A model generated the notes under the pieces. It did not search any database. It had not been told where the DNA came from and was given only the letters and a program-made list of their open reading frames with translations. The position numbers and the translations under genes were made by a program. Of a DNA stretch of 64,000 nt, positions 3,368 to 48,170 are shown piece by piece (the stretch's first letter is position 1; each line of letters begins with the position of its first letter). Source of the stretch: a virus. The stretch is from the IMG/VR virus record IMGVR_UViG_3300043184_000020; one strand, 5' to 3'.

Positions 3368-3658
3368 ATGCGTAGATTTTTTTTGATGCGAAAGGTAGAC
3401 GTTTCCGGGACTAGCGGCGTGGGGGTCGTGGCCGAAGGGGTCGTATTTGATAACGGCAAGGCCGCCATGACTTGGCTTTCAGACGTCAAGTCGGTTACGT
3501 GTTTCGACCGCTTGACCGAAGTTATCAAGATTCACGGGCACGGCGGCGCGACGGTCATGGTACTGGAAGGCCGCAAGTCGGACGCGAAAGCTTTCGAGTC
3601 ATGCCTTGACGCGGTACGGGCACGAAAGGCCAAGGCTAAGCATGCGGGGGTCATATGA
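3368..3658 (+). CDS. hypothetical early protein
   Basis: GAAAGG RBS, preceded by TTGACG-N17-TATCCT promoter. Confidence 0.6.
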   Translation: MRRFFLMRKVDVSGTSGVGVVAEGVVFDNGKAAMTWLSDVKSVTCFDRLTEVIKIHGHGGATVMVLEGRKSDAKAFESCLDAVRARKAKAKHAGVI

Positions 3659-7518: not shown

Positions 7519-7899
7519 ATGGGATACAAGAACTATGCCAGTCAAGAATCGTGCCAAGACGGGGACCGTGTCACGGAAGACGCACGTCAAGCCGGACATG
7601 GGTCCGATCCGACACGTGTCACCGATGACACAGGTCAACTTGGACGCGTGTCCGACGAGACACAGGACGCCTTTGCAATGCTCGTGCCAGCCCGAGATTT
7701 TAAGCTTGGCACGCGATATGCAGGGACTCCCGTCGGAGAGTTTCAGCGCGACGCGGACGGTCGCTATTGGTGGCGACGGGTAGACGGCTCTATCATGGAA
7801 GTTTTCCCCCATCCTTCGGCATTGTTCATGCCTTTGAAAGCGGGGGGATCGGTAGCGGACCCGTATCATGGAGAACTAGACACGCGGGGAGACGCCTAG
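7519..7899 (+). CDS. hypothetical protein
   Basis: GGAAAGGA RBS; preferred over the overlapping frame 7487..7783. Confidence 0.5.
   Translation: MGYKNYASQESCQDGDRVTEDARQAGHGSDPTRVTDDTGQLGRVSDETQDAFAMLVPARDFKLGTRYAGTPVGEFQRDADGRYWWRRVDGSIMEVFPHPSALFMPLKAGGSVADPYHGELDTRGDA
7707..7722 (+). promoter_or_regulatory. sigma54-type -24/-12 element, TGGCACGcgatATGCA (intragenic)
   Basis: Same motif inside ORF 7519..7899, upstream of the tandem 27-bp motifs. Confidence 0.3.
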
Positions 7900-8005
7900 C
7901 GTAGAGAATTCAGCACGCGGGGAGAATCACCCTATAGAGAACTCTGTAGGTGGGTAAGATCGGACACCCCACCCCCTATAGAGAACTTAACAAGCGGGGA
8001 GAATC
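7869..8005 (+). promoter_or_regulatory. four tandem copies of the 27-bp motif (T/G)(A/G)GAGAA(C/T)-N9-GGG(G/T)A(G/A)(A/G)(A/C)(T/G)C
   Basis: Copies at 7869-7895, 7902-7928, 7935-7961 and 7979-8005, each with a 9-nt spacer. Confidence 0.5.
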
Positions 8006-8015
8006 GAGGTTTCAC

Positions 8016-8222
8016 ATGTTTAAGAGTTTCCCATACCCTAACGCCACGCCTTCAAAGGTTCGCATGGTATACGACGCCGCACGACTCCTAGGCTATCCCG
8101 CGCCTTCCTACCTGAAAGCTCAGGAAGCGGCGCACAAGTTCACAGCTGAGGAACTCGAAAGGCTAGTCCGCATCGGTTCACGTCGAAAACTTGCGAGAAC
8201 ACGCTTGACCGTGGTCAAGTAG
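8016..8222 (+). CDS. hypothetical protein (68 aa)
   Basis: Track ORF 7950..8222 trimmed to ATG 8016, which lies 10 nt after the third tandem copy of the 27-bp motif. Confidence 0.5.
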   Translation: MFKSFPYPNATPSKVRMVYDAARLLGYPAPSYLKAQEAAHKFTAEELERLVRIGSRRKLARTRLTVVK

Positions 8223-8276
8223 TTTGATAAGGTGAGTCTATCCCCGAGACGTTCCCCCTAACGTCTCTCCCCCCGA

Positions 8277-8326
8277 CCCCTGAGAGGTTCCCCCCCCCCC
8301 CTTTCGCCTCTCGGGGGTTTTTTTTG
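8277..8326 (+). terminator. rho-independent terminator with C12 tract in the loop
   Basis: CCCCTGAGAGG ... CCTCTCGGGGG 11-bp stem (one G-T wobble) followed by T8; ends the early block. Confidence 0.65.
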
Positions 8327-8417
8327 TCCTTAGACTTACTGTCAAACATCTTTACAGCTGCTGAAAAGTTCGACGACATACCGACGACACGGCCTAAGGA
8401 TTTCAAATACTTACAGC

Positions 8418-8433
8418 TGGCACGGTCGATGCA
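8418..8433 (+). promoter_or_regulatory. sigma54-type -24/-12 element, TGGCACGgtcgATGCA
   Basis: In the intergenic region after a terminator, flanked by 16-bp direct repeats, upstream of ORF 8488 and rIIA. Confidence 0.45.
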
Positions 8434-8487
8434 TTAACTATCTGTAACGGCGACGACATACCGACGCCGCAAACGAAAGGACCGAAC

Positions 8488-8658
8488 ATGGGAAACAAGA
8501 TCAAAGGTTACGAGTGGGAAGGCATGAGTCTTGCAATGTACGCCGAGGGTAACACCTTCCGCGTGGTGTCGATCTGCGACGGTTTTCGTAGCGACAAGAT
8601 TTTTATTGACTACTCGGAAGCCTCAAGTTACTTTGATGGTGTACTCACGGGGAACTAA
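8488..8658 (+). CDS. hypothetical protein (56 aa)
   Basis: Below the track cutoff; GAAAGGA RBS; downstream of a sigma54-like promoter. Confidence 0.45.
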   Translation: MGNKIKGYEWEGMSLAMYAEGNTFRVVSICDGFRSDKIFIDYSEASSYFDGVLTGN

Positions 8659-8679
8659 TCCTAACGAAAGGGAAAGAAT

Positions 8680-10710
8680 ATGAGACTAGCACAGCACGCA
8701 AACAAGCTCGAAACTAACGTCCAGGTTGAAAGTCAAAACTTCGGAATCGGTGACGCATCGGTCGTCATCGAGATCTTGAGAAACCGACTCTATCAGCATA
8801 AGATTCGCACGCTCGTTCAAGAGTATATCTGTAACGCGAGGGATGCCCATAGAGAAGTTGACTCGCGGGAAAAATTGATCGTGACGGTACCTAACCGCTT
8901 GAATCCTATCTTTAAGGTTCGAGACTTCGGTCCTGGTATCTCTCCCGACCGCATGCGCGACGTGTTCATCATGTACGGCGCTAGCACTAAGCGCGGGACT
9001 AACAAGCAGACCGGCGGTTTCGGCATCGGTGCAAAGTCAGCATGGAGCTACACCGACTCTTTCACGATCGTGTCGATCACCGAAGGCAAGCGTCGCACCT
9101 ACGTGGCGCATACCGGAGTGAACAACAACGGACGCCTTGACCTCATCGAGACCGTCGACACGGACGAGCCTAACGGCACCGAGATTCAGGTTTCCGTCAA
9201 GCCTAGCGACCTCGAAGAGTTTAAGAACTCAGTGCTCCGAGCTATCCACTTCTGGCCTCAAAAACCTACGCTCAAGGGTTTGGTGGACGCTCCTACTGAC
9301 TCAGGCTTACAGCAAGGTCTGAGCCTTGAACTCGGAAAGCACTTCGAACTCGTGACCGGACTCCCATGGTACGTATCAGGTTCGAACTCATACAGCCGTG
9401 ACCTAATCGCGGTCATCGATGGAGTACCTTACGCTATCAATAGAGAACTTCGCGAGCGGGTAGCTTCGCTTGATGAACTCGCTACCTTGTGCCGTCAGCA
9501 CATGATCTTTCACGTAGGTAACGGACTCATCGAAGTTTCGGCGTCCCGTGAATCTATCGCGGACTCAAAGCAGACGATCGAAGCGCTTGACAAGCTTGCC
9601 TCTGCAGCTATCAAGGAAGTGAAAGCCTACGTCAAGGCCGAGTTTGACAAGGTGAGATCGGTTCACGATTTCATGGGTACGTATTCCCGACTAGAAAAGT
9701 ACGTTACGCTTGACGCGAGCCTCGCTGAGTTTCAAGGCTACAAGATCGAACGCGGAGCCATGAGTAACGCTACGCTTGAGCCTCACTACTTGAAGGAGAC
9801 CGTATCGCCTCAGTATCGCAGTAACTCGGTGGCCGACGGCGTGCGTCGTAACGACAAGACCTCGAAACCCTTCGCGCTTGCAGACTACGGAAACATCTAC
9901 TACGTCGACGTGGTGGAGTCTCGGGTCATCGAGAATCGTCGCCTACGCACTATCCTGGCAACGGCTCGAAACGGTTTCGTACTGATCAAGAAGCACGACA
10001 AGAGCGACCCTAAGCTTTGGAATCAGCTGATCACGGACCTCAACGCTATCCCGCTTTCAAGTGTTCAGATGACGAAAGCCGCTCCGGTTCAGCGAGTCGC
10101 TAAGGCCGTAACCGAGATCACGGTTCACATCCCACGGTCTAACAATCGCGAGACGGCGACCATCAACATAACTTCCAGCATGCACGACTACGTGTACGTG
10201 GAAACGCAAGCCGGTGAGTTTTTGGGATACCGACGCGAAGACCTCACAGATCTTGCCCGGTATCTCGATCAGCACCACGGCGTCAAGCTCGTAGGCTTGG
10301 CACCTTTGACGATCAAGAAGGTCCAAGGTCTGAGCAACTTCCAGTCTCTCGAAAGTTTCTGGAAGGCGTACAAGCCTGAGACTAAGGACCTACGCATCGC
10401 GAAGCGTACACTTTCGAAGAGCTTCGAGATCATGTCGGCTCTTAGTAAAGGTCCGAAGACGCGCTGTAAGTTCTTCTCAAAGATGCAGCTGGAGTATGCA
10501 GACATCGCAAGCTTTGCGAACGAGAGTACTCCTAAGATCATGATCAAGGTTCTTGAGAAGCTCGACGAGGTTAAAGACTTCGTAGAGAACGACTCCAAGC
10601 TCCAAGGTCAGATCGAAACTAAGTACAAGCTGCTCAAGATGTTTGACGCTTATAACCGATTCCGTGGAGATTCTGCAGAGTGGGTTGAATATATTAACGC
10701 TAAGTCCTAA
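8680..10710 (+). CDS. rIIA: rIIA-like protein (GHKL ATPase fold)
   Basis: N-box ICNARDA, G1 box VRDFGPGIS and G2 box GGFGIGAKS; 676 aa; directly upstream of an rIIB homolog. Confidence 0.75.
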   Translation: MRLAQHANKLETNVQVESQNFGIGDASVVIEILRNRLYQHKIRTLVQEYICNARDAHREVDSREKLIVTVPNRLNPIFKVRDFGPGISPDRMRDVFIMYGASTKRGTNKQTGGFGIGAKSAWSYTDSFTIVSITEGKRRTYVAHTGVNNNGRLDLIETVDTDEPNGTEIQVSVKPSDLEEFKNSVLRAIHFWPQKPTLKGLVDAPTDSGLQQGLSLELGKHFELVTGLPWYVSGSNSYSRDLIAVIDGVPYAINRELRERVASLDELATLCRQHMIFHVGNGLIEVSASRESIADSKQTIEALDKLASAAIKEVKAYVKAEFDKVRSVHDFMGTYSRLEKYVTLDASLAEFQGYKIERGAMSNATLEPHYLKETVSPQYRSNSVADGVRRNDKTSKPFALADYGNIYYVDVVESRVIENRRLRTILATARNGFVLIKKHDKSDPKLWNQLITDLNAIPLSSVQMTKAAPVQRVAKAVTEITVHIPRSNNRETATINITSSMHDYVYVETQAGEFLGYRREDLTDLARYLDQHHGVKLVGLAPLTIKKVQGLSNFQSLESFWKAYKPETKDLRIAKRTLSKSFEIMSALSKGPKTRCKFFSKMQLEYADIASFANESTPKIMIKVLEKLDEVKDFVENDSKLQGQIETKYKLLKMFDAYNRFRGDSAEWVEYINAKS

Positions 10711-10711
10711 A

Positions 10712-10738
10712 TAGAGAACGAAAGAAGAGGGTAAAATC
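10712..10738 (+). promoter_or_regulatory. 27-bp motif copy, TAGAGAAC-N9-GGGTAAAATC
   Basis: Ends immediately before the rIIB ATG. Confidence 0.45.
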
Positions 10739-11551
10739 ATGAACTACATCATCCTAAACGACTCGATGGTACTGAACTACGGCGGTAAGACGATCTCGAT
10801 CGCTAACACTGACGAACGATACACGAAGGTCATCGACCTGATTCGAGACAACAAGCTGGAAGAGATCCCAGCGGTCATCGAAGCGCAAGCCTTAGCCTTC
10901 AGCGGCGAAGGTGTGGAGCTGCGAGACGGAGTCATCGTGGTTGACGGCGTGGCTATCCCGCACGAGCTTTCCGATCGAGTGTTGAAGTTCCGTGAACAGA
11001 AGCTTCCCTTCGAACCACTTTTGAACTTCTGGCGTAACCTGAGGAAGAATCCTTCCTTTAACTCTCGTCAGATGCTCTACAAGTTTCTGGAGCATAACGG
11101 TCATCCGATCACTCCGGACGGCTGCTTCATCGCGTACCGTGGCATCCGAGACGACCTGAAGGACATGCACACCGGTACCTTTAACAACGCGCCTGGACAA
11201 GTGTGTGAGATTGCTCGCGATCAGGTTGATGACAATCCGAATAACACTTGCTCGCACGGTCTTCACGTGGCATGCTTCGACTACGCCAAGGGTTTTGGTC
11301 AGAAGCTCGTAGAGGTTAAAGTTAACCCTTCGGACGTGGTCGCGGTACCCACCGACTACAACGGCACCAAGATGCGGGTTTGCAAGTTCGAAGTTCTAAA
11401 CCTGATCGATAAGCCAAGAGCCGAAGAGCTTGCATCCGACGTGGAAGGTTCGGACTACATGACCGAGGACGAGGTTGACGAGCAGGAAGCTAACGACTGG
11501 GACAGCGAAGATGATTACCACAGCTGTGACTGTGAATTCTGCACGGAATAA
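10739..11551 (+). CDS. rIIB: rIIB-like protein
   Basis: NNTCSHGLHVA...VKVNPSDVVAVPTDYNGTKMRVCKFEV closely parallels the T4 rIIB C-terminus (TCSRGLHV...VKVHPRDVVSIPIDYNDAKMRTCQYEV). Confidence 0.85.
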   Translation: MNYIILNDSMVLNYGGKTISIANTDERYTKVIDLIRDNKLEEIPAVIEAQALAFSGEGVELRDGVIVVDGVAIPHELSDRVLKFREQKLPFEPLLNFWRNLRKNPSFNSRQMLYKFLEHNGHPITPDGCFIAYRGIRDDLKDMHTGTFNNAPGQVCEIARDQVDDNPNNTCSHGLHVACFDYAKGFGQKLVEVKVNPSDVVAVPTDYNGTKMRVCKFEVLNLIDKPRAEELASDVEGSDYMTEDEVDEQEANDWDSEDDYHSCDCEFCTE

Positions 11552-11902: not shown

Positions 11903-12272
11903 AAGCGGAGACCTGAAGGCGGTGAACGACGACTTGATTCGTCAGCTGCTAGAAGATCCGCTCTACGAGGTGAGACCCGACGGTACAATCCTGACGCTGA
12001 AAACGGTTACTGGAAAGGTAAGTGCAAACAGTGTGTGGAGAAAAGCTGGCAGGTACGAGTCTAACGGTTACGTCCAGATATCGTATGCAGGTAAGCGGTT
12101 ACTAGCACACAGAATCGTATATCAGAAGTTTAAAGGAGGACTCAAGTGCGATTTAGTAGTTGACCACGGTAACGGAATAAGAGATGATAATAGGCCTGAG
12201 AACCTAAGTTTGGTTACAGCAAAGTCAAATCACTTCTACGTGAAGAGGAGAAAAAGCAATGAAAGTTCGTAG
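11895..12272 (+). CDS. HNH homing endonuclease
   Basis: LAHRIVY...VVDHGNGIRDDNRPENL (HNH_3-type motif); start moved to ATG 11895 directly after the 27-bp motif. Confidence 0.8.
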   Translation: MGRSGDLKAVNDDLIRQLLEDPLYEVRPDGTILTLKTVTGKVSANSVWRKAGRYESNGYVQISYAGKRLLAHRIVYQKFKGGLKCDLVVDHGNGIRDDNRPENLSLVTAKSNHFYVKRRKSNESS

Positions 12273-13155
12273 TTTGTATCTTATGGTGATGATCGCGGCC
12301 CTCGTGGGTTGTGGTCCTGATCGAGAAGTCGTTCAGGTTTACAAGGGAGATCCTGGTCAGAACGGGACGTCGTGTTCCGTAGGACCCGCCCTCGACGAAG
12401 AAACCTTCTCGGTGATTGGAGCAAAGATCTCGTGTACCGACGGTTCATCGTCGCTAGTACTGAACGGCGCTCAAGGCCCACAAGGCGTTCAAGGCCCTCA
12501 AGGTCAGCAGGGTATCCAAGGCCCGGTCGGTCAGACCGGCGCAGCTGGAGCGAGCTGTCAAGCGTATCGATCCATCCTCTTCTCAGGAGTATGGCTTGCA
12601 TGTCCTAACCAGTTTCCGGTCTTGATCAAAGACGGCGAAGATGGAGAAGACGGCGAAGATTGTAAGGTGAAACAGTTGTCTAACGGCGCACGCATCACAT
12701 GCGGAAGTTCAGTGGCCTACGTTTACAACGGACAAAACGGTCAGAACGGGACTTCATGCTCTATCAGCAACGCGACCGGAGGAGCGCAGATCACTTGCGG
12801 AAGCACGAGTCAGATGATCTACGACGGTCAGAACGGAGCTGTCGGACCAGTTGGCCCCCCCGGACCTCAAGGACAGCCTGGACAGAACGCACTTGCTAAC
12901 GCTATCGGAATCAAAGGCTACATCTATCCATGCGGTCAAGAGTTTGCAAACGATGAGATCTTCTTGCGACTCACGGACGGAAAGATTTTGGCTCTCTACG
13001 ATGGTGGACCTCACGAGGATCGATTGGCACTTCTCGCACCGGGTAACTACATCACGACGGACCGTAACAAGAACCAGGCTTGTCAGCTCACGGTTGACTC
13101 TAACCTTAACGTGACGTCTAACCCACCGACTACTGGTCTCGGGTTGAACAACTAA
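12259..13155 (+). CDS. lipoprotein with collagen-like G-X-Y repeats
   Basis: Lipobox ALVGC; GAQGPQGVQGPQGQQGIQGPVGQTGAAGAS and GQNGAVGPVGPPGPQGQPGQN tracts; internal (I/A)(S/T)CG repeats. Confidence 0.75.
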   Translation: MKVRSLYLMVMIAALVGCGPDREVVQVYKGDPGQNGTSCSVGPALDEETFSVIGAKISCTDGSSSLVLNGAQGPQGVQGPQGQQGIQGPVGQTGAAGASCQAYRSILFSGVWLACPNQFPVLIKDGEDGEDGEDCKVKQLSNGARITCGSSVAYVYNGQNGQNGTSCSISNATGGAQITCGSTSQMIYDGQNGAVGPVGPPGPQGQPGQNALANAIGIKGYIYPCGQEFANDEIFLRLTDGKILALYDGGPHEDRLALLAPGNYITTDRNKNQACQLTVDSNLNVTSNPPTTGLGLNN

Positions 13156-13744: not shown

Positions 13745-13984
13745 ATGAGACTCTTTTTACTAGCTTCTGTACTGCTAATGACAACGGGTTGTGGTGACAT
13801 CAAAGTTACGCAGCCGAAAGACTTCGTAGTGAAGCATCAGGTAGATCTTGAGAACTTGGAAGTCTACTTCCGAAAGCTCTGCGAAGAGGAGTTGTCTCAA
13901 GACGGAACGTACGAACCCACTGCGCTTGAAGTAGATACCTGTGTTGACGTTAAGATCGCAGAGTTCTTAGACGCGATCACTTAG
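13745..13984 (+). CDS. small lipoprotein
   Basis: Lipobox LMTTGC; start 2 nt after the 27-bp motif. Confidence 0.6.
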   Translation: MRLFLLASVLLMTTGCGDIKVTQPKDFVVKHQVDLENLEVYFRKLCEEELSQDGTYEPTALEVDTCVDVKIAEFLDAIT

Positions 13985-14174
13985 ACTGATTGACGAAGGT
14001 CTTCAGCTCGTTGACGAACTGTAGGCCTTCCTTTTCAAGACGATCCAAAACTCTAACACCTTTGGTCTTAGAGTCTAGAAACTTCTCTACGTCCCTAAGC
14101 GCCAAACCTTCTGACGCTAGGAAGTGGACAAGCTGTGTGAGGGCTATCTCGAAGTCACTCAGCTCCCTGTTCAT
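13977..14174 (-). CDS. hypothetical protein
   Basis: Last ORF of the long minus-strand block; its 3' end overlaps the convergent + strand ORF by 8 nt. Confidence 0.4.
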   Translation of the reverse strand: MNRELSDFEIALTQLVHFLASEGLALRDVEKFLDSKTKGVRVLDRLEKEGLQFVNELKTFVNQSK

Positions 14175-14979
14175 CCTGTGGCGCTTCTTCTTGCTGAATA
14201 GGCTCGTAAGGTTTTACAGGAGCTTCGACGTCTACGAAGAACTTAACGTACTGCTGAGGAACTAAGACCCCGTAGTGTAGTTCTCTAGATCCGGAAGCGA
14301 AGACTAGACCAGCGATATGACCTTCTGAGTCAAAAACCGCAGAGCCTGAGTTACCTGGTAGTACCAGAGCGGAGGTGTGTTGAGAGTCGTACTTCTTGGT
14401 TACAGGAAAGCCGAAAAGACACTGAAATCCGTGCTCTTCAAACTCTTCTTTGGTGCATGGACGAACGTCAACTACGATCTCAACTTCCATTCGATCACCA
14501 AAGGTGCCCCTAGAAACCGTGTGAGGGTAGAGTCTAGGATGTCCAGAGATGATAGCAGCATCTCCGAACTCGGGTGCCTTCTTGGAAACTTCAGTGCGGA
14601 TCTTCAGGTTTTCTTTGATCTTAACCAAGCAGAGATCATGCTGCTCAGACTTCTTAAGTGCGATGACTTTATGCTTACCCTTGCGAGAGACGACTACGCC
14701 ACCCTTCTCAGCAACCTCACAGACGTGTCGGTTGGTCAGGATCTCAGAGCCAGTCTCGTCGGAGTTGAGGATAACTCCGCTACCTCCACCGTTCTCCTTC
14801 AGGTTCATGATCTTGACGGAAGTCTCCGCAAGCTCCTGAGTCGTGGTAGGTTCGATAAGCTTGGTGCTCACTGCTTGGTGATAGGTCCCAAGACCCAGCG
14901 CAAGCACGATAGCGACCATGGAAGCACGAACGGCCCTACGACCGGGTTTCAGTTTGGAGGCCAACTTTTTTAAACTCAT
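14155..14979 (-). CDS. membrane-anchored trypsin-like (S1) serine protease
   Basis: N-terminal signal anchor; TNRHV (His), HDLCLV (Asp) and GNSGSAVF (Ser) triad context; no PDZ domain. Confidence 0.75.
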   Translation of the reverse strand: MSLKKLASKLKPGRRAVRASMVAIVLALGLGTYHQAVSTKLIEPTTTQELAETSVKIMNLKENGGGSGVILNSDETGSEILTNRHVCEVAEKGGVVVSRKGKHKVIALKKSEQHDLCLVKIKENLKIRTEVSKKAPEFGDAAIISGHPRLYPHTVSRGTFGDRMEVEIVVDVRPCTKEEFEEHGFQCLFGFPVTKKYDSQHTSALVLPGNSGSAVFDSEGHIAGLVFASGSRELHYGVLVPQQYVKFFVDVEAPVKPYEPIQQEEAPQDEQGAE

Positions 14980-14981
14980 TA

Positions 14982-15248
14982 CTAGTTCACACTTTCAGTC
15001 ATGGGATTAACTTCAGTGTGAGCTTGACTGAGCGCCATACTCACCTGCGTGACGTTCTGAAGATGAGCTGCGGATAGCTGCATCAGAGTTTTACGCAGTT
15101 CAGGGTCCATCGCTTTAGAACCCCTGATCTCTTGGAACTCCACTCCCATGACCTGAATGACGTCCGACAAGATCTTCAAAGCCAGGAGATACTCCCGCCT
15201 TTTGACGATCATAACATCTTTGATTTGCTGTTTTTTCTTACGACCCAT
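14982..15248 (-). CDS. hypothetical protein
   Basis: Track ORF trimmed to ATG 15248, 1 nt after the ClpP stop. Confidence 0.4.
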   Translation of the reverse strand: MGRKKKQQIKDVMIVKRREYLLALKILSDVIQVMGVEFQEIRGSKAMDPELRKTLMQLSAAHLQNVTQVSMALSQAHTEVNPMTESVN

Positions 15249-15249
15249 C

Positions 15250-15828
15250 TTAGGATTCTGACACAATCCGATCGATAAGTCCAAGTTTGAGGGTTTCTTC
15301 AGAGGTAAGGTAGCAGTCCCGTTCGCAAAGCTTCTCGAAAGTTCGAGCTTTAGTGGTACCTTTTGAGAACTCTTCGTACATCATGCACATCTGTTTCTCT
15401 AATGTTTCCGTATGCTTAAGCTGAATCTTAAGGTCAGACAGCGTGCCCTTAATCCAGTCGGAGATCTCATGGATCATGAGCCAGGAATGCCTACCCATCA
15501 AGCGTTCGTCACCCGCCGCAAGGATGAAGGTGGCTGCAGACATGATCTTACCCCACCCCCGAGTGATGATATGGCAGGGAGAGGACCTGATACGATCGAC
15601 GATGCCCATCATGTCGTAGACCGAACCGCCGTAGGAGCTGATCTCTATTCGGATCTGAGCCTCTGGATTCTTGTCCATCTCGTCGAGAGCCTTCATGACA
15701 AGCTCAAGGGAGCACTCGTCGACGTCGTCGTTAAGGTAGATTACTCGTTCTCTGAAGTTGACGTTGCGCTCGAAGATGTTGTCATAGTGATCGGTGTTTC
15801 TTTCACGAGCCACATCGTCTCCTTTCAA
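15250..15828 (-). CDS. ClpP-family (S14) serine protease
   Basis: ISSYGGSVYDMMGIVDRI...GKIMSAATFILAAGD...WLMIHE matches the ClpP core with Ser and His in place; start uncertain (TTG 15828 or GTG 15813 after AAGGAG). Confidence 0.8.
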   Translation of the reverse strand: MKGDDVARERNTDHYDNIFERNVNFRERVIYLNDDVDECSLELVMKALDEMDKNPEAQIRIEISSYGGSVYDMMGIVDRIRSSPCHIITRGWGKIMSAATFILAAGDERLMGRHSWLMIHEISDWIKGTLSDLKIQLKHTETLEKQMCMMYEEFSKGTTKARTFEKLCERDCYLTSEETLKLGLIDRIVSES

Positions 15829-16021
15829 GTATTAAAAGTTAGGCCGATCTCCCACGGTAGGAGTTATCGCGCTCGGCTATCACACACGATAGAAGCTACC
15901 CTCGAGCCTCTAAACAGAGAGCAGTATCGGATCACTGACTAAGATCGCCTGGTCTACGTACCAAGTCCGCCGAGCAACCTCGATTTACGTGATGCCGCTA
16001 AGTCACGGATACCCGTCGGTA

Positions 16022-16714
16022 TCAAGCTTGAGAAGTAGATTCTGGGGAAGCTTCAGCTTGCTTCGCAGCCTCTTCTGCTTCCTTAGCCTTAGCAGCGGCT
16101 TCCGCAGCAGCTTTAGCTTGGAGTTCTGCCTTGAGTCGGTTGTGCTGTTTGATCAGCTCGCCAACTACAGAAGTCTTGTAAGGAGTACGAACTTCGTGGA
16201 TGTGAAGATAAAACTTAGCTTTGCGGCTCTTAAGATGCTCAGGGTAGTTCTCAGGGAATTGAACCGTGACCTCGATCTCTTCACCAGCCTTACGACCGAT
16301 GAGAGCGTCTTCAAAGCCAGCGATCATCTTGCCCGTTCCGAGTCCGTTCAGGATGAACAGCTCGCTGTTACCACCGTCGAACAGGGCTGGAACTCCAGGA
16401 GCAAGCTCTTCCATGGAGCCGTCTTCCTTGAGCAGCACACCAGCGTAGTCCATCAGGACGTTGTCGCCAGCTTTGGAAGCTTCAGTGGTAGCTACGGAAG
16501 CTTCCCACTCTTGGATCTGACCAAGATTCTGAGTGACTTCTTGTTGAAGTCGAGAATGACCTTGAAGCAAGCTCATGATCATCTGACCTTGACGTTGAAG
16601 GATCGACTCGTGCTTCTGAGCGATCGTGGCGTTCTCTTGCATCACCTGCCCTTTGGTGGGCTGGGGAGCTTGTCGAAAACCTTTGCGGAACTGACTGACG
16701 TTATCGTTGGACAT
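16022..16714 (-). CDS. trigger-factor-like FKBP-type PPIase domain protein
   Basis: GDNVLMDYAG...GKMIAGFEDALIGRKAGEEIEVTVQFPENYPEHLKSRKAKFYLHIHEV parallels the E. coli Tig PPIase domain (RVTIDFTG...[49 protein letters not shown]); AAGGAG RBS. Confidence 0.75.
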   Translation of the reverse strand: MSNDNVSQFRKGFRQAPQPTKGQVMQENATIAQKHESILQRQGQMIMSLLQGHSRLQQEVTQNLGQIQEWEASVATTEASKAGDNVLMDYAGVLLKEDGSMEELAPGVPALFDGGNSELFILNGLGTGKMIAGFEDALIGRKAGEEIEVTVQFPENYPEHLKSRKAKFYLHIHEVRTPYKTSVVGELIKQHNRLKAELQAKAAAEAAAKAKEAEEAAKQAEASPESTSQA

Positions 16715-16741: not shown

Positions 16742-17275
16742 TTAGCTGATGAAGGTTAGATCGTCAAGAGGGATCTTCATCATCCCCCCTCTTCGTGAGT
16801 GAACCGCAGACACCATACCGTGTACGTCGGTCTTATCAGGGTCCGGCACGTAGACTTCGTCATCGATGACGGCGTACTTACGAGCCTCGCCACGGATGTT
16901 CTCTGTGATCTGAATCTTGGCCTTCTTAGGCTCAGCAATCTTTTGAGGTTTGGGAGCTTCCGGGATGGAGGTAGGCTGTGAGGCTTGAGGAGTAGGAGCT
17001 TCAGACTTAGGCAAGGTAGAGCGCTTCATGGCAGCTGCAGCTACAAGCTTTAGGGTCTGAACTTCATCTGAACTAAAGGTTTCAGGGGTCGAACTATAAG
17101 AGTTTTCGCCCATAGCCAGCTTCTGGGCTATGTCACACAAGCGTTGTGTCACTTCTTGTGTCACATCTTCTGGGAGCTTGGCGGTCTTTGGAAAGTTGAT
17201 CTGAACACTCTGGTAAGCTTTCTTCAAAGCCACCTCGCGCTCTAGCTGCTTGATCTTAGATTCTAAATCGCTCAC
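16742..17275 (-). CDS. hypothetical protein (coiled-coil N-terminus, Pro-rich linker; possible scaffold)
   Basis: Track ORF starts at 17491 with no RBS; GGAGG lies 5 nt before GTG 17275; the upstream 216 nt use atypical codons. Confidence 0.45.
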   Translation of the reverse strand: MSDLESKIKQLEREVALKKAYQSVQINFPKTAKLPEDVTQEVTQRLCDIAQKLAMGENSYSSTPETFSSDEVQTLKLVAAAAMKRSTLPKSEAPTPQASQPTSIPEAPKPQKIAEPKKAKIQITENIRGEARKYAVIDDEVYVPDPDKTDVHGMVSAVHSRRGGMMKIPLDDLTFIS

Positions 17276-17520
17276 GAGACCTCCGATTAAGTGTACGGGC
17301 AGGGCGCTACTCCTACTCCAGTCGTTAACTGGGGGCATTAACGCCTGACTTACGCCCGACGTTGCACCGCGTGTCTCCAGTAGCTTAGGTCGCCCATCAT
17401 GAACCGATTGCATGACATTCACGACTACGGTCCCATTCAGCACCAAGGCAATCTCGGATGCGCCACTACAGCTTTCCACGCCGCCGTACATTATGAGGTT
17501 AGCAATTTAGATGATTAAGG

Positions 17521-18357
17521 TCAAGCTTTTTTCTTAGGCTTGTGGACGTGCAGCTGACAGCGGCATCGCGGGTGAGTCGGTCCTACCGTAGGCAACCAGT
17601 CTCGCTTCTTCTTTCCGAAGTTAGAGCCGTTTGCTTGGAGTTCCGATAACTTATAGAGCTTGGGCGTACCGTCAGCGTTGGTGTAGAACCTTCTGCACCA
17701 TTGACATAGACGAGCATCGCTGATAACAGTCTTGTAGACGAGTTGGTCCTTGGGAGCTTCCCCGGTGAACAAGCTGTCTGAGGTGGCGTTGTCTAGGATG
17801 GCGTCGTTTACGACGTGCGTTAGCGTGGTGGTGAACCCTCGTTCGAACTGACTGGCTACGGAAGCCATGATGATAGGAATATAGTTTAGAAGTTCTTGCT
17901 TCTCGGCTTGGAGACGTTCTTGAACTTGTTCGGGAGACGTCACACGGTTAACGGCGACGACCTGTCGGTGCTTGCGGTTGGCGTCTACCAGCTTCTGTCT
18001 GAGCTGCTTCTTAAGCTCTTCTCTGCTGGTCTCTATGACGTCCGTGAAGGCCGCCTTAGCGGTGTCGAGAGTGCCTTGCTGAGCATCGTTCAGGATAGGA
18101 AGTGTTCGAAGTCTGGCTTGGTCTAGTAAGCTTGAGATGGAAGAGTTCTTAGGGTACCCGTTGTCTGGTCGGTTCCTGAGAAGCACGTAAAGGAGTTCTA
18201 TGACAGCTCTCTGGCCCAGTATGAGACCTAGTTGTTCTACCTTGATCTTGTCCTCGTCAGACATCAAAGCGTCACCGACGAGCGCAAACAAGAGCCCTAA
18301 GTAGGCCTTGTCTACGATCTCGTCGATGTTCTTGTAGAGCCGTCTATCAGCGAGCAT
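17521..18357 (-). CDS. MuF/SPP1 gp7-like head morphogenesis protein
   Basis: C-terminal THPRCRCQL (H-x-x-CRC motif of PF04233); position just after the portal gene. Confidence 0.7.
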   Translation of the reverse strand: MLADRRLYKNIDEIVDKAYLGLLFALVGDALMSDEDKIKVEQLGLILGQRAVIELLYVLLRNRPDNGYPKNSSISSLLDQARLRTLPILNDAQQGTLDTAKAAFTDVIETSREELKKQLRQKLVDANRKHRQVVAVNRVTSPEQVQERLQAEKQELLNYIPIIMASVASQFERGFTTTLTHVVNDAILDNATSDSLFTGEAPKDQLVYKTVISDARLCQWCRRFYTNADGTPKLYKLSELQANGSNFGKKKRDWLPTVGPTHPRCRCQLHVHKPKKKA

Positions 18358-18565
18358 GGCGTTCGATCTCCTGCCTTATCTCGCTCTCGATCTGTTCAAG
18401 CGTAGCGGCGTGCATCTTTAGAAGGTCGTCGTGAAGCTTGTTCAACCATTCGTCGGAGTACTTCTCTCCGTCCGTACAGTCGTGCTTAGCTTTGAGCGCC
18501 TTCTCTAGAAACTCGTCAGCATCTTCCGGATGCTCGTGCGGTAAGAGTTCAATCTTGACCTTCAC
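18347..18565 (-). CDS. hypothetical protein
   Basis: 72-aa acidic ORF between the portal and MuF-like genes. Confidence 0.45.
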   Translation of the reverse strand: MKVKIELLPHEHPEDADEFLEKALKAKHDCTDGEKYSDEWLNKLHDDLLKMHAATLEQIESEIRQEIERHAR

Positions 18566-18568
18566 GAC

Positions 18569-20359
18569 TTAATCTTCCTTGATGAAGTATTCGATAGCTA
18601 CCGCTTGCGATTTCTTTGTTTCTTCTTTGGAGCTTGCTTCGGCAGCTTTACTGTCGGCTTCAAGCTCTTTTGACACTTCGTCAACCGCTGTACTAATCGC
18701 TTGATCGAGAGAGTCAACGTCTTCACCAAGTGAGCCGTCAACATCTTGACCTTCTGAATTATCTTGTCCATCTGGACCCCCTTCTGGTCCACCGTCCATC
18801 ATCTGCTGCTCAGCTTGTTCCTGAGCTTGCTTCTGCGCCAAGTACTGAGTGTACGTAGCGTTTAGCACGATGTCCCCGTTATCGATAGGCGGATACCCCA
18901 TCTCGATCCGCACTTCGTTCAGCGTCTTATACGTCTGAACTTCTTCCTTCAAGCGATCGAGTTCTTGTTTTCTCGATTCCGCCTGAAACCCTACGAACTT
19001 AAACTTGTACTTAGCCGCATACTCTTTGTTCCAGTAGCGGATGATATGATTGTTGAGCAGGTTCTCGATCATGTCGAGAAGAGGTCTGAGACCTTTGTCG
19101 CGAGACTGCTTTAGTCGCTGCTCGTTGTTAGCTTCTTGGAGCGTACTGGTGCCCGTCTTAGAGATGTCAAAGTTGATCTCCGCCGGATCGATCTGAAACA
19201 CCGCGCAGCAGATCTTGATGAGGTAGTTCATCCACTGCTCAAACTCCATCTCCTTATTGGTCTGAGCAAGCGAGACCCACTTAACCTCTTCAGCCATACC
19301 GATGATCGGTGGGCGGAAAGCGTTACGAGAGTTTACGACCTGGTTGAACCACTGACGCTTGAAGGCCTCGAGCTGAGAACGGCTGATGTTGTCGCCCTTG
19401 ATGTGAAGGATACCTTTGGTACCGATACCTTGCGTGAAGAAGTTTCTGTTGTGAGCTTCCGCGTAGAGGTGTGCGGTGATGATGTTGATCAGGAACTCAA
19501 GCTCACCCGGCGCGTAACCGTTATCCTCAGGATCAATAGTCGGAGTTGCGGGTTCGAAGATCAGTTCGTCTTCGGTGAAAGCAGCAACGACCTTTCCTCG
19601 AAGGATCTGGACGTATCTGAAAGGCTTCTTAGCGTCGAAACGCTTCTTGGTACGACGACGCTCCGCATCGTTTCGCATGATCTCATCGTTCTGCTTTTGA
19701 TTACGCTGAGAAACGTAACGGATGGTGCCGGAAGATATCGGATAGTAGTGGTGAAGCTTCTCGCCGTCGCGAGTAGGCACAAGCTCCACGCCCATGTAGT
19801 TGTAGGTCAAACGATCTTCTACGATGGCGGTAACGAACTTGTCGAAGTCCCATCGGCGTTCTGTGGTGTCAGTCTCGTCAGGAGCCATACCGCAGTGAGA
19901 GATGAACTCGCAGATCTCCATGATCTCTTTTCTCTGAGCTTCTTTGAGCTTCGAGAGCTTCTGGTCCATCTCGTACTTGAGGTCAGCGTAGGTCTTCTCG
20001 TCCAGGTTAGGGTCCGCGAGCTTAAGCTTATCTTCAGGAGATAGGTCAGCTGGCTCCACGGCTTCGATGACCCAACCCTCAGAGTAGCGGTCTTTCTGAG
20101 GTTTAGTAAAGGTTTTTACTTGAGCAAGACGCGTGTTGATGATAGATCTTATGATGGAATCCTTACGGGCCATGCTCTTGAGCACGTTAGGTCCGATCAA
20201 CCCGGCCTTCTCCTTCCAACCGTACTGCTCGTCGTCAGGGTACGACAGGTCCACGAAACCTTTACGTTCCGCACCCTCTGCCGTGGTGGTCTTAGCCTTC
20301 GTGATGTAGGTGTCCAGCGCCGCGTTAGTCGCGTCTAGAACTTTTTGGAATATGCTCAT
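18569..20359 (-). CDS. portal protein
   Basis: 596 aa, immediately downstream of TerL, acidic C-terminal tail; assigned by size and synteny, not by motif. Confidence 0.7.
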   Translation of the reverse strand: MSIFQKVLDATNAALDTYITKAKTTTAEGAERKGFVDLSYPDDEQYGWKEKAGLIGPNVLKSMARKDSIIRSIINTRLAQVKTFTKPQKDRYSEGWVIEAVEPADLSPEDKLKLADPNLDEKTYADLKYEMDQKLSKLKEAQRKEIMEICEFISHCGMAPDETDTTERRWDFDKFVTAIVEDRLTYNYMGVELVPTRDGEKLHHYYPISSGTIRYVSQRNQKQNDEIMRNDAERRRTKKRFDAKKPFRYVQILRGKVVAAFTEDELIFEPATPTIDPEDNGYAPGELEFLINIITAHLYAEAHNRNFFTQGIGTKGILHIKGDNISRSQLEAFKRQWFNQVVNSRNAFRPPIIGMAEEVKWVSLAQTNKEMEFEQWMNYLIKICCAVFQIDPAEINFDISKTGTSTLQEANNEQRLKQSRDKGLRPLLDMIENLLNNHIIRYWNKEYAAKYKFKFVGFQAESRKQELDRLKEEVQTYKTLNEVRIEMGYPPIDNGDIVLNATYTQYLAQKQAQEQAEQQMMDGGPEGGPDGQDNSEGQDVDGSLGEDVDSLDQAISTAVDEVSKELEADSKAAEASSKEETKKSQAVAIEYFIKED

Positions 20360-20404: not shown

Positions 20405-22183
20405 TCAGAAAGTGAACCAGAAATCTCCATCCTCGTCTTCCTTCTCTTTTTGTTCCTGCTCTTTACGACCGTCGTAAAACTGCGTTAAACCTTGGATGTC
20501 CGCGATGTCTTGGGCTGTGGGAGTCCCGATGTAGTTACCTAACGCGTCCTTGTTGCTTGCTGACCCGTCGTCCTCATCGTCACGGCTGTACCCGATGTAG
20601 ACCGGAGATGTCTTATCAAATTGGTAAACTACTCCTGCTATGACGATAGCGTAGTCGTCATGACTGTTCGCCGCAGCTGCGATCTGAACCTTGTTTGATA
20701 TGGCGCTTCGCCTCTCCCGAAGATCCTTAAGATGCTGAACGGCGATAGGGTTATGCACCATGAGGAAGCTCTTCGTGTTGAGCGCTACCTGCAGCGAGTA
20801 CATCATCTTGATCTTGGAGGAGTTGTGAAGCGTGTACTCCTTGAGCACGATACCTTCTTTGGCGAACAGAGGTTTGAGCGCTCCGAAGGCGTATTGATCG
20901 GCGAGACAGAACGGCACCTGATACTTCTTAAGGATGTGGCAGATCTCGGGAACGACCTCTGCGGGGTCAAGCTCTGCTCCGTCGCTTCCTCTCCAGTGTA
21001 CTAGGACGTCGCAGTACACCTTCTCGAGCTTGTCCTTGGAGTTAGGGTCCATGACGTACTCTTTGTGCCCCACCGCGAGAGTCCAGTAGTCGTTTCGAGT
21101 AGCGTAGTCGATCATGGCTACGTAGCGGTAACCTTTCTGGTAGTCCAGCTCTTCGGTTCCTCGGATGATTCCAAGCTCGATGAGGTTCGGGTCCAAGTAG
21201 GAAGCTTCAGAAGCCGTGTACTCAGCTCCGTACTCTCGGTTGAAGTAGTTCATCCCCTTCTTCTTCTGCTTCTCAAGGTAGCTTACGGCAAGCTTAGGGT
21301 TAGCGTACCAGGAGGGAACTTGTAGGTGTAATACGTCTTTGTCGGTGCGGCCTAGGTAGTCGTTGAACTGAAGCCCGGCTTGTCCGTTCGGAGACGAGAT
21401 CTTAAGCACGAGCGCCATACCCTCGATCTGTTGAAACTGCGAGAGGGCCGGGGCTAGAGCTTCGTAGATACCTTTGTCGGTGTTCTTCGTGTCGTTACCC
21501 TCAACTCCGAAGAAGCAGTTCTCGTCCAGGATCGCGAAAGGTACGGCCATACCTCGGATCTTTGAGACGTCAGCAGCCATGACCTTGATCACGACCTTGT
21601 TGTTGAGCTTGATCTGTCCACCCTTGATGGAGCCTGGGTTCTTGAGGTCTTCCTCAGAGTACTCGGCCTGGATGTTGTCGATCTTACCGTCGAGGAACTT
21701 ATCGAATATCCAAGGAGATTTCAGGCAGAAGTTCTTGATCGCAGCGAACACCTCACCGGCCTGTTCTTTCGTGGCCGAGATGATCGGAATGGTTGCGTGA
21801 GGAGAAGTACCAAGGTAGGGTATATAGTCAAACTGGGTGGCGTAATACAAGGCGAGCCCCGCTCCGATGGTCGTAGACTTACCCGAGCGTCGACCAAAGC
21901 ACAGCGAGGCGTCGGAGTAGTGCTGCATCGCGTAGCTCTCCTTGCCGGAGAAGTGCAGGAACATCTCGATCTCGTTCTTGAAAACGTAGGTCTCCCCATC
22001 TTCCGCAGTGTACGCGAACGGAGATTCCTGATAGACGTGAGACTTCGGGATAGGTGCGAAAGCGTCCAGCGGCTCACAGCGGATGGCCTTCAGCGTAACC
22101 TTCTGAACAGGAGAAAGGTTCGTGACGTCTAGGATGGTCTCGAAGAAGTCGATGATGGGAAGTTGGTGAAGCTTGGTGCTCAC
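20405..22183 (-). CDS. terL: terminase large subunit
   Basis: Walker A GRRSGKST, Walker B AILDE, C-terminal nuclease-type acidic residues; 592 aa. Confidence 0.9.
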   Translation of the reverse strand: MSTKLHQLPIIDFFETILDVTNLSPVQKVTLKAIRCEPLDAFAPIPKSHVYQESPFAYTAEDGETYVFKNEIEMFLHFSGKESYAMQHYSDASLCFGRRSGKSTTIGAGLALYYATQFDYIPYLGTSPHATIPIISATKEQAGEVFAAIKNFCLKSPWIFDKFLDGKIDNIQAEYSEEDLKNPGSIKGGQIKLNNKVVIKVMAADVSKIRGMAVPFAILDENCFFGVEGNDTKNTDKGIYEALAPALSQFQQIEGMALVLKISSPNGQAGLQFNDYLGRTDKDVLHLQVPSWYANPKLAVSYLEKQKKKGMNYFNREYGAEYTASEASYLDPNLIELGIIRGTEELDYQKGYRYVAMIDYATRNDYWTLAVGHKEYVMDPNSKDKLEKVYCDVLVHWRGSDGAELDPAEVVPEICHILKKYQVPFCLADQYAFGALKPLFAKEGIVLKEYTLHNSSKIKMMYSLQVALNTKSFLMVHNPIAVQHLKDLRERRSAISNKVQIAAAANSHDDYAIVIAGVVYQFDKTSPVYIGYSRDDEDDGSASNKDALGNYIGTPTAQDIADIQGLTQFYDGRKEQEQKEKEDEDGDFWFTF

Positions 22184-39012: not shown

Positions 39013-39119
39013 GATTGCACCGCCCAGTTAATTAAGGTTAGGGCAAAGAAGAGCGCTGCCCAGTGATAAGCCTTGTCTAGAAGATTTACTACGCACATGA
39101 TCGCCATGAGGTACGTCAT
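39009..39119 (-). CDS. micro-ORF, 36-aa TM peptide
   Basis: ATGA overlaps at both ends (GroEL stop and nuclease start); MTYLMAIMCVVNLLDKAYHWAALFFALTLINWAVQS. Confidence 0.4.
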   Translation of the reverse strand: MTYLMAIMCVVNLLDKAYHWAALFFALTLINWAVQS

Positions 39120-42486: not shown

Positions 42487-42724
42487 GTTTCAGTGTGAGT
42501 GCCGCTACTGCGGGTTCAGATGGGTTAAGCAGGTTACCGAGTACGCCGCCAGGACCGGAGACCTTGATGGTATCCGCTGCACGAACGGTAGCTGTAACGA
42601 TCGTAACGTGAAGGTTACGGAACTTAGTAAGTCTGGAGGAGACGCGTTTGGTTATCGCTTCAGTCCAGACTTTCCTAAGGAAGATTTCAGCGGTCCTGGT
42701 TACTGGGGTCAGTATTCGGACTAG
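42479..42724 (+). CDS. zinc-ribbon protein
   Basis: CECRYCG...CTNGSC motif. Confidence 0.45.
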   Translation: MLKFQCECRYCGFRWVKQVTEYAARTGDLDGIRCTNGSCNDRNVKVTELSKSGGDAFGYRFSPDFPKEDFSGPGYWGQYSD

Positions 42725-48141: not shown

Positions 48142-48170
48142 ATCTTACCCTTATGGGTAACTTTTTACAA
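48142..48170 (-). promoter_or_regulatory. promoter, TTGTAA-N17-TAAGAT
   Basis: In the 41-bp gap upstream of ORF 47743..48123. Confidence 0.4.

Follow-up and report, generated by a model that had tools for sequence, protein, structure and literature searches.

The 64,000-nucleotide stretch of viral DNA analysed here (IMG/VR record IMGVR_UViG_3300043184_000020; hereafter the window) encodes on its minus strand a 230-residue protein, which we call mini-TF, that joins a trigger factor (TF)-type peptidyl-prolyl isomerase (PPIase) domain to an N-terminal peptide corresponding to the TF ribosome-docking signature. The protein is a member of a family not described before, and its gene lies in a conserved phage gene block, where it is followed by a ClpP-type peptidase. 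We tentatively read mini-TF, with somewhat less than even confidence, as a phage-specific reduced TF whose tail would be tethered, most probably to the ribosome, and which would act on nascent late proteins. The gene and its parts are located at:

16022-16714, minus strand: mini-TF, 230 amino acids (aa); FKBP_C 9.8e-9 (Pfam), TIGR00115 tig 5.5e-20 (NCBIfam)
16649-16684, minus strand: signature-like motif, residues 11-22, KGFRQAPQPTKG, matching the TF ribosome-docking signature GFRxGxxP
16499-16654, minus strand: helix 1 (stalk), residues 21-72, 52 residues; AlphaFold2 (AF2) model, predicted local distance difference test (pLDDT) above 95
16184-16495, minus strand: PPIase domain, TF-type FKBP, residues 74-177, from the alignment to E. 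coli TF 176-257
16025-16168, minus strand: helix 2 (40 residues) and A/E/K-rich tail, residues 183-230; helix 2 at residues 183-222 in the AF2 model

The initial annotation had recognised a TF-type PPIase domain in this open reading frame (ORF), and the profile comparisons agree: the tig model matches at E = 5.5e-20 versus 0.021 for the next FKBP model, and TFs lead the matches in both the PDB sequence search and the Foldseek search. The five best PDB sequence matches are all TFs (3e-12 to 1.5e-10). The Pfam model FKBP_C (PF00254) reaches 35.9 bits and passes its gathering cut-off of 21.1 bits. A generic FKBP identity was considered and rejected, since TF models and structures fit better by many orders of magnitude. 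The peptide by which the domain had been recognised, MIAGFEDALIGRKAGEEIEVTVQFPENYPEHLKSRKAKF, comprises residues 130-168 of the 230-aa protein. According to the PDB sequence alignment, the pocket residues F112, F120, I131, F134, Y157 and F168 are equivalent to F177, F185, I195, F198, Y221 and F233 in E. coli TF, respectively. In an alignment of 54 family members (A2; mean column identity 26%), F153, P154, Y157 and F168 of the PPIase domain are invariant and F134 and E135 nearly so; the positions that are invariant in TFs are kept in the family. A comparison of the family profile with 20 cellular TFs by hhalign gave an E-value of 1.9e-35 for query residues 63-174 on TF residues 140-246, a region that covers the linker and the PPIase domain only. 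These two elements of mini-TF are of TF ancestry.

The remaining parts of Tig had been described as lost, and this is borne out. No match to Trigger_N (PF05697) was obtained at E-values up to 0.1, the N-domain aligning over 9 columns only, and no match to the Trigger_C cradle (PF05698); behind the PPIase domain there is just one helix and a low-complexity tail. Of the profile matches anticipated at the outset, FKBP_C and tig as the top model were recovered, whereas Trigger_C was not. The tig match extends over profile positions 125-277 of 410, which comprise the linker, the PPIase domain and the first C-domain helix, and its 71.6 bits lie below the equivalog cut-off of 180.2 bits. Judged by its sequence, mini-TF is not a Tig orthologue, because the N-domain fold and the C-domain are missing and the equivalog score falls short, while the PPIase subtype agrees.

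The AF2 model computed from the 54-sequence alignment has a pLDDT of 93.4 and a predicted template modelling score (pTM) of 0.73; an earlier run with 9 sequences was poor, with a pLDDT of 57.7. In this model, residues 1-20 form a low-confidence tail, followed by helix 1 (residues 21-72), the PPIase domain (74-177), helix 2 (183-222) and then a charged tail. The C-terminal part of helix 1 corresponds to the TF inter-domain linker (query residues 63-75 on TF 140-153 in hhalign). The start of helix 2 aligns with the first helix of the TF C-domain, and phmmer alignments to TFs reach query residues 192-197. The A/E/K-rich C-terminal tail that had been noted is present behind helix 2, and it differs in length and composition between family members. 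When the model was compared with the PDB by Foldseek, the five best matches were TFs, with those of V. cholerae and E. coli first (1e-8 to 5e-7, at most 158 aligned columns) and ahead of other FKBPs. Among the viral structures of BFVD, no structural relative was found below E = 0.1.

The likeness of GFRQAPQP (residues 12-19) to the Tig signature, which the initial annotation had pointed out, holds throughout the family. KGF[RK] is present in 51 of the 54 members, and the positions conserved in at least 90% of the aligned sequences are the PPIase core and K11-G12-F13-R14. Apart from the PPIase core, nothing in the family is conserved as well as this motif, K-G-F-R-x4-P-[TS]-K: among the 51 motif-bearing sequences Lys is found in 50, Gly and Phe in all, Arg in 48, and then, behind two variable positions, [K/P] and a further variable position, Pro in 40, [T/S] in 47 and Lys in 44. 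It shares GFR, the Lys at +5 and the Pro at +7 with the signature GFRxGKxP of TFs. The motif glycine is at residue 3-28 (median 9), so that the motif lies at or near the N-terminus, and its low pLDDT in the AF2 model is indicative of a flexible tail. When the N-terminal 75 residues of the family were aligned by hhalign to the N-domain and linker of TFs, the best alignment placed KGFRqxkkP on xGFRxGKxP with a score of 26.0 (P = 2.3e-4). In a column-shuffle control (n = 300) the mean score was 8.5 (standard deviation 1.8) and the maximum 17.8, and none of the 300 shuffles reached 26.0. A chance likeness was rejected on the basis of this control and of the conservation in the family, and it appears very unlikely that the motif resembles the TF signature by chance. 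The simplest reading is that the motif was kept from a TF ancestor while the remaining N-domain fold would have been lost, because it adjoins a domain that is clearly of TF descent.

How widely is this family distributed? In a word-indexed protein database, 10 proteins matched mini-TF, all of them metagenomic. An exhaustive profile search of 1.84 billion representatives returned thousands of cellular TFs, which match via the PPIase domain alone, alongside dozens of full-length matches to proteins of 186-290 aa. The latter constitute at least 54 clusters at 50% identity, again all metagenomic. The family was not found in isolate phage records or in BFVD. Among GenBank phages there was no nucleotide match to the cassette by megablast, and tblastn against GenBank phage records gave PPIase-only matches without a true relative. 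One of these, MT835986.1 (H1, L026), was deposited as a phage and was rejected as a relative, being a bacterial proC-tig-clpP-clpX fragment. The other PPIase-only matches come from short, unannotated or bacterial-like records named “Bacteriophage sp.” or “phage”, which suggests contamination of the phage collection. IMG/VR gave no match to the single protein or to three divergent members used as queries, whereas alignment A1 retrieved a single true relative (L012) and, from a different viral contig, a full-length TF. A word-index search with the N-terminal region alone (A4) gave no match. Of nine matches to a degenerate DNA pattern for KGFRQx3PTKG, five are true members with the same synteny and four are out-of-frame chance matches.

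Literature searches found no paper describing a phage-encoded TF derivative, in agreement with what had been stated initially; uncharacterised TFs do occur on viral contigs. PHROGs contains a TF-like family, phrog_26774, which has no assigned function and is the sole PHROG match of mini-TF. The full-length TF found in the IMG/VR scan is encoded at 7581-8873 of IMGVR_UViG_3300009537_004348 (L013, 51.8 kb); it has 430 aa and the signature GFRKGKAP, and its neighbours are a sigma-factor-like gene and the gene of a 1140-aa DnaE-type polymerase. Two observations concern the origin of the relatives. The contig CAYLHJ010000015.1 (L023, 15.9 kb), on which the block is represented by its TerL-portal-MuF-like-X-mini-TF part, is binned in a “Candidatus Saccharibacteria” metagenome-assembled genome, and another relative (L020) originates from Hainich groundwater. 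Together, they are a weak hint to a habitat or host, or the bin is an artefact.

According to the ORF list of the window, the mini-TF gene is one of a series of closely spaced genes that form an operon-like block at about 13.98-22.18 kb of the minus strand. The ORFs originally reported for this region are all present on that strand and where they had been placed. In the direction of transcription, the genes and the spacer around mini-TF are:

20405-22183, minus strand: terminase large subunit (TerL), head of the block; phrog_2 8.8e-23
18569-20359, minus strand: portal; Phage_portal 2.7e-21, phrog_12 1.2e-52
18347-18565, minus strand: conserved 72-aa protein between portal and MuF-like gene, kept in relatives
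17521-18357, minus strand: MuF/SPP1 gp7-like minor head candidate, 278 aa; weak TIGR01641 match, E = 0.075
16742-17491, minus strand: protein X, raw ORF of 249 aa without family match; homologues lie directly upstream of mini-TF in all loci
15814-16021, minus strand: spacer of 208 nucleotides (nt) between the mini-TF and ClpP genes
15250-15813, minus strand: ClpP-like serine peptidase, 187 aa, stand-alone; CLP_protease 8.6e-30, phrog_94 head maturation protease 5.8e-37
14982-15248, minus strand: protein Y, 88 aa, between the ClpP-like and trypsin-like proteases; position and sequence kept in relatives
14155-14979, minus strand: Trypsin_2 protease, 274 aa; Trypsin_2 2.2e-15
13977-14174, minus strand: conserved 65-aa protein, last gene of the cassette, with a 20-nt overlap with the protease gene

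The synteny comparison covered related contigs with enough flanking sequence, in which the identity of mini-TF to the window copy ranges from 100% down to 26%:

L025: mini-TF identity 61% over 33 aa; the fetched stretch holds mini-TF residues 1-32 only
L003, L004, L005, L020: mini-TF identity about 45%
L012, L017, L018, L023: mini-TF identity 39-43%
L006, L007, L008, L009, L011: mini-TF identity 27-31%
L029: mini-TF identity 26%

In all of them the order is TerL, portal, a small ORF, the MuF-like gene, (small ORFs), X and mini-TF, and the block continues with (a small ORF or an overlap), the ClpP-like gene, Y, the Trypsin_2 gene and a small ORF. None of the related contigs examined, even at 26% identity, departs from the pairing of the mini-TF and ClpP-like genes. 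Related phage contigs of 110-119 kb recur. In the most divergent subclade (L006, L008, L011, L029) the mini-TF gene runs 20 nt into the ClpP gene, which suggests translational coupling of the two in this subclade; the partial contigs L007, L030 and L031 have the same 20-nt overlap of mini-TF with the downstream gene. In L003-L005 and L020 an extra ORF of 53-56 aa is located between mini-TF and ClpP. The ClpP-like and trypsin-like genes each occur as two types, one with about 27-30% and the other with 60-70% identity to the window copy.

The cassette had been described as following portal and MuF genes. This stands for the portal, whereas the MuF label is weak: the TIGR01641 match is below threshold, involves residues 243-269 only, with a C-terminal THPRCRC motif, and is not accompanied by a Pfam match. 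The gene is kept after the portal in all relatives. The portal gene of L006/L008 (4483-7401) encodes 972 aa and contains an intein with a LAGLIDADG homing endonuclease, which splits its tblastn match to the window portal. Protein X has no Pfam, PHROG or PDB match; it consists of a helical N-terminal part with LEREVALKKAY, a P/Q/A-rich linker and a small C-terminal domain. It probably comprises about 177 aa from an internal GTG near 17275, as the homologues all begin with MSNLES.. and align to residue 73. The shorter form leaves about 245 nt of apparently non-coding sequence behind the MuF-like gene; in relatives, two small ORFs occupy this place. For protein Y, no informative Pfam, PHROG or PDB match was obtained. 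The 208-nt spacer contains no ORF of at least 25 aa, no stable RNA fold (z = -0.07) and no Rfam match; a regulatory RNA in it was rejected, as there is neither a fold signal nor an Rfam match.

The gene downstream of mini-TF encodes, as first assigned, a protein of the ClpP family. The raw ORF, beginning with TTG, is 15250-15828; translation likely starts at the GTG at 15813, behind an AAGGAG ribosome-binding site, and yields the 187 aa reported by gene callers. The CLP_protease match (104.4 bits) covers positions 13-181 of 182, and over its full length the protein is 30% identical to cellular ClpP, with Ser, His and Asp aligned, as they also are with ClpPs of the PDB. It remains below the equivalog cut-offs of both ClpP (97.3 versus 249 bits) and the head maturation protease NF045542 (90.7 versus 120 bits). 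Its identity to cellular ClpP and to phage ClpP-like proteins is about 30% alike; a common origin of the mini-TF/ClpP pair in a bacterial tig-clpP unit is at most a possibility. Among isolate phages, the closest stand-alone ClpP-like genes have about 31-33% identity, and at least one of them, that of Vibrio phage pv27, is located outside a head module. Here and in the relatives, the ClpP-like protein is a bare protease domain (187-203 aa range) without a scaffold or targeting extension. The 88-aa ORF at 14982-15248 is followed, as described initially, by a signal-anchored trypsin-like protease without a PDZ domain, for which there is no room. Its catalytic residues are represented by the motifs TNRHV (His), HDLCLV (Asp) and GNSGSA (Ser), and its N-terminus has a basic and hydrophobic segment predicted to serve for export or anchoring; the hydrophobic segment is also found in the relative L006. 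Models of the DegP/HtrA/MarP type match partially, at residues 58-158 and far below their cut-offs, and the PDZ domain that defines HtrA/DegP is absent. The absence of a ClpX/ClpA unfoldase holds for the ORFs of more than 400 aa in the window, all of which were scanned. A 312-aa AAA (PF00004) protein is encoded just outside the window (979-1917 of L027, about 9 kb ahead of the first window position); it falls short of the size of ClpX/ClpA and may be a clamp loader.

The window also encodes a DNA polymerase, a primase-helicase, a helicase, an exonuclease, RecA, rIIA/rIIB, and baseplate and fibre proteins. A GroEL-type chaperonin is encoded at 39116-40777 on the minus strand (phrog_5725 2.6e-117; Cpn60_TCP1 1.6e-55), without an obvious GroES-sized gene beside it; GroEL, mini-TF, the ClpP-like peptidase and the HtrA-like protease make up an unusual set of proteostasis genes for one genome. 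The portal is about 37% identical to those of Herelleviridae, in which the gene order is portal, protease, scaffold, capsid. The scaffold and protease of the Herelleviridae phage CP-51 have no homology to mini-TF, X or the ClpP-like protein. The search for a major capsid gene, which covered the window and the adjoining 10 kb upstream, was negative, so that the ClpP-like peptidase may or may not be the sole prohead protease. Several further genes were noted. Three consecutive proteins of 883, 761 and 1325 aa (42721-45372, 45414-47699 and 48165-52142, minus strand) each have a carbohydrate-esterase CE2_N-like domain; they probably serve as tail fibres or in receptor binding, with modules that modify or bind glycans. 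On the strand opposite to the cassette, 12259-13155 (plus) encodes a protein of 298 aa that begins like a lipoprotein (..LVGCG) and contains collagen-like GxQ/GxP triplet repeats, and behind it lies the gene of a 163-aa signal-peptide protein, also on the opposite strand. The rIIA/rIIB-like genes are located at 8680-11551 (plus strand; phrog_612 4.5e-82, Pfam Phage_T4_rIIB). A small gene at about 3368-3658 (plus strand) carries an Acb5 label in the precomputed Pfam list and may be a candidate for action against CBASS (cyclic oligonucleotide-based antiphage signalling systems).

How could mini-TF work? In cellular TF the FRK signature mediates docking to uL23, and the nascent polypeptide-associated complex anchors at the same ribosomal site by a basic N-terminal tail. 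For ribosome binding, the client proteins and a functional link to the protease, we infer the following. A cellular TF ancestor would have given rise to mini-TF by loss of the N-domain fold and of the C-terminal cradle. The docking signature, now on a flexible N-terminal tail, and the PPIase head with its aromatic pocket would have been kept, as would the linker helix and the first C-domain helix, lengthened to form the long stalk. By its basic KGFRx4P[TS]K tail, mini-TF would be tethered, most probably at the ribosomal exit site (uL23 and 23S ribosomal RNA), and the PPIase head on its stalk could bind or isomerise emerging late proteins, which would be the head-assembly proteins of the same operon. 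Cellular TF hands clients to DnaK and GroEL; the clients of mini-TF may perhaps be handed on to the phage GroEL. The mini-TF gene would be co-expressed with the head genes and with that of the ClpP-type peptidase that follows. A wider claim, that a lineage of phages of about 110-120 kb has a minimal ribosome-docking TF, in which the bare signature peptide places the PPIase head at the exit and which together with GroEL, ClpP and the HtrA-like protease forms a viral proteostasis pathway for virion proteins that may displace the host TF, is possible and on balance doubtful.

Several points weigh against a ribosome-tethered TF. The substrate cradle, which carries most of the chaperone activity of TF, is missing, and so is the N-domain fold that presents the signature loop in TFs, with no Trigger_N match and nine aligned columns. 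The Gly at +4 of the signature, invariant in TFs, is not conserved in the family. The gene is part of a head-morphogenesis operon, in which a scaffold or assembly factor is likewise expected, and no major capsid gene lies nearby that would point to the clients. Finally, the types of the ClpP and trypsin partners do not track the identity of mini-TF, nor that of TerL (L003-L005 and L020 compared with L006, L011, L012 and L017). Partners that apparently diverged independently or were exchanged argue against a tight physical complex of mini-TF with the protease, and the pattern suggests module exchange within the conserved block.

As an alternative, mini-TF may be a scaffold or assembly chaperone of the procapsid, in which the stalk and tail act as the scaffold, the PPIase domain chaperones coat or portal, the KGFR tail binds a capsid component and the ClpP-like protease later removes the protein. 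We regard this as rather unlikely. The gene does lie in a TerL-portal-MuF-like operon, directly before a ClpP peptidase whose best PHROG is a head maturation protease, and this peptidase, a bare protease domain, would depend on a partner. Scaffolds typically have features such as the two long helices and the A/E/K-rich tail, and the 20-nt overlap suggests coupled synthesis. Also in favour is the gene order of the Herelleviridae, related through the portal, with a scaffold between protease and capsid. Against this reading, mini-TF is encoded before and not behind the protease, and no capsid gene is adjacent or in the window. Moreover, mini-TF has no similarity to the scaffold families of PHROGs or to the CP-51 scaffold, and a purely structural role would leave the near-invariant TF-signature motif and the PPIase pocket unexplained. 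Proteins X and Y are equally good scaffold candidates, and the closest stand-alone ClpP-like genes of isolate phages can sit outside head modules.

That mini-TF serves as an adaptor or regulator of the ClpP-like peptidase, binding the ring or its substrates and delivering or gating them without an unfoldase, seems improbable to us, even though the two genes are strictly adjacent across deep divergence and overlap in one subclade. Peptides that dock on ClpP follow the tripeptide rule [LIV]-G-[FL], which KGF does not fit owing to the K at its first position. ClpX-like docking of KGF in the manner of an IGF loop, which calls for a hydrophobic residue at the place of the invariant Lys, was accordingly set aside. 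Changes of the ClpP type, between about 65% and about 28% identity, are not mirrored in mini-TF, and there is no ClpX/ClpA among the window ORFs of more than 400 aa. Cellular TF binds ClpX and speeds the degradation of some substrates (PMC7804408), a cooperation that would lend itself to such a role, and the order tig-clpP-clpX is seen in the bacterial fragment MT835986. The contact in cells, however, is to ClpX and not ClpP, and it is made mainly by the C-domain arms that mini-TF lacks. Quite improbable, in our view, is that the tail competes with host TF, signal recognition particle and SecA for uL23 in a host takeover that redirects or blocks the biogenesis of host proteins, or that mini-TF is a vestigial auxiliary PPIase with a relic motif, soluble and generic and not specifically linked to ribosome or capsid. 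A docking motif and a PPIase head are indeed the minimum needed to occupy the site, and phages carry other enzymes of the ribosomal exit site, such as the peptide deformylase of cyanophages. The conserved position in a late operon nevertheless fits virion production and not early takeover, the conserved PPIase pocket indicates that the head is not a mere spacer, and a motif that is near-invariant in a family with 26% mean column identity does not behave like a relic.

The comparison with known systems shows what is particular to mini-TF. In bacterial TF (Tig; E. coli TF, PDB codes 1w26 and 2vrh), the PPIase domain, the linker and the flanking helix are homologous to those of mini-TF, the pocket residues are the same, the GFR...P signature has the same spacing, and a ClpP homologue is encoded next door as in tig-clpP-clpX. 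On the other hand, mini-TF is about half the size, has neither the Trigger_N fold nor the Trigger_C cradle, bears its signature without the Gly at +4 on a disordered tail, and is encoded in a phage late operon. PceT/RdhT of organohalide respirers are truncated TF paralogues acting as dedicated chaperones, which kept the PPIase domain and the C-domain and lost the ribosome-binding N-domain. Like mini-TF they are TF-derived, have lost part of the architecture and would have specific clients; mini-TF, however, keeps the signature and loses the cradle, and thus represents the opposite half. FkpA and Mip (PDB codes 1q6u and 8bjc) likewise have an FKBP head on a long helix, and Foldseek aligns about 190 columns with mini-TF, but at a root-mean-square deviation of about 14-15 Å and about 15% identity; these periplasmic or surface dimers lack a TF signature and have an FKBP domain of another subtype than TF. 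The ClpP-family head maturation proteases of phages and their stand-alone homologues (NF045542, phrog_94) share the ClpP fold and triad and the position near the portal with the peptidase described here, which in contrast is below the curated cut-offs and has no fused scaffold or capsid domain. T4 gp31, the GroELs of phages EL and OBP and the virioplankton chaperonins (PMC5649160) are capsid-folding chaperones supplied by phages, and the present phage also has a GroEL, but none of them is TF-derived or ribosome-associated.

Docking of the tail on the ribosome, if it occurs, would make mini-TF the first chaperone of a phage to act at the exit tunnel, and a natural minimal TF in which the docking peptide is set apart from the N-domain fold and the PPIase domain from the cradle. 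Mini-TF makes the separate contributions of the TF signature and the PPIase domain directly testable. Should mini-TF turn out to be a scaffold or a partner of the protease, it would provide the first example of capsid assembly having recruited a PPIase domain. The breadth of the family and its tight linkage to a ClpP-type peptidase mark an uncultured phage lineage with unusual proteostasis genes.

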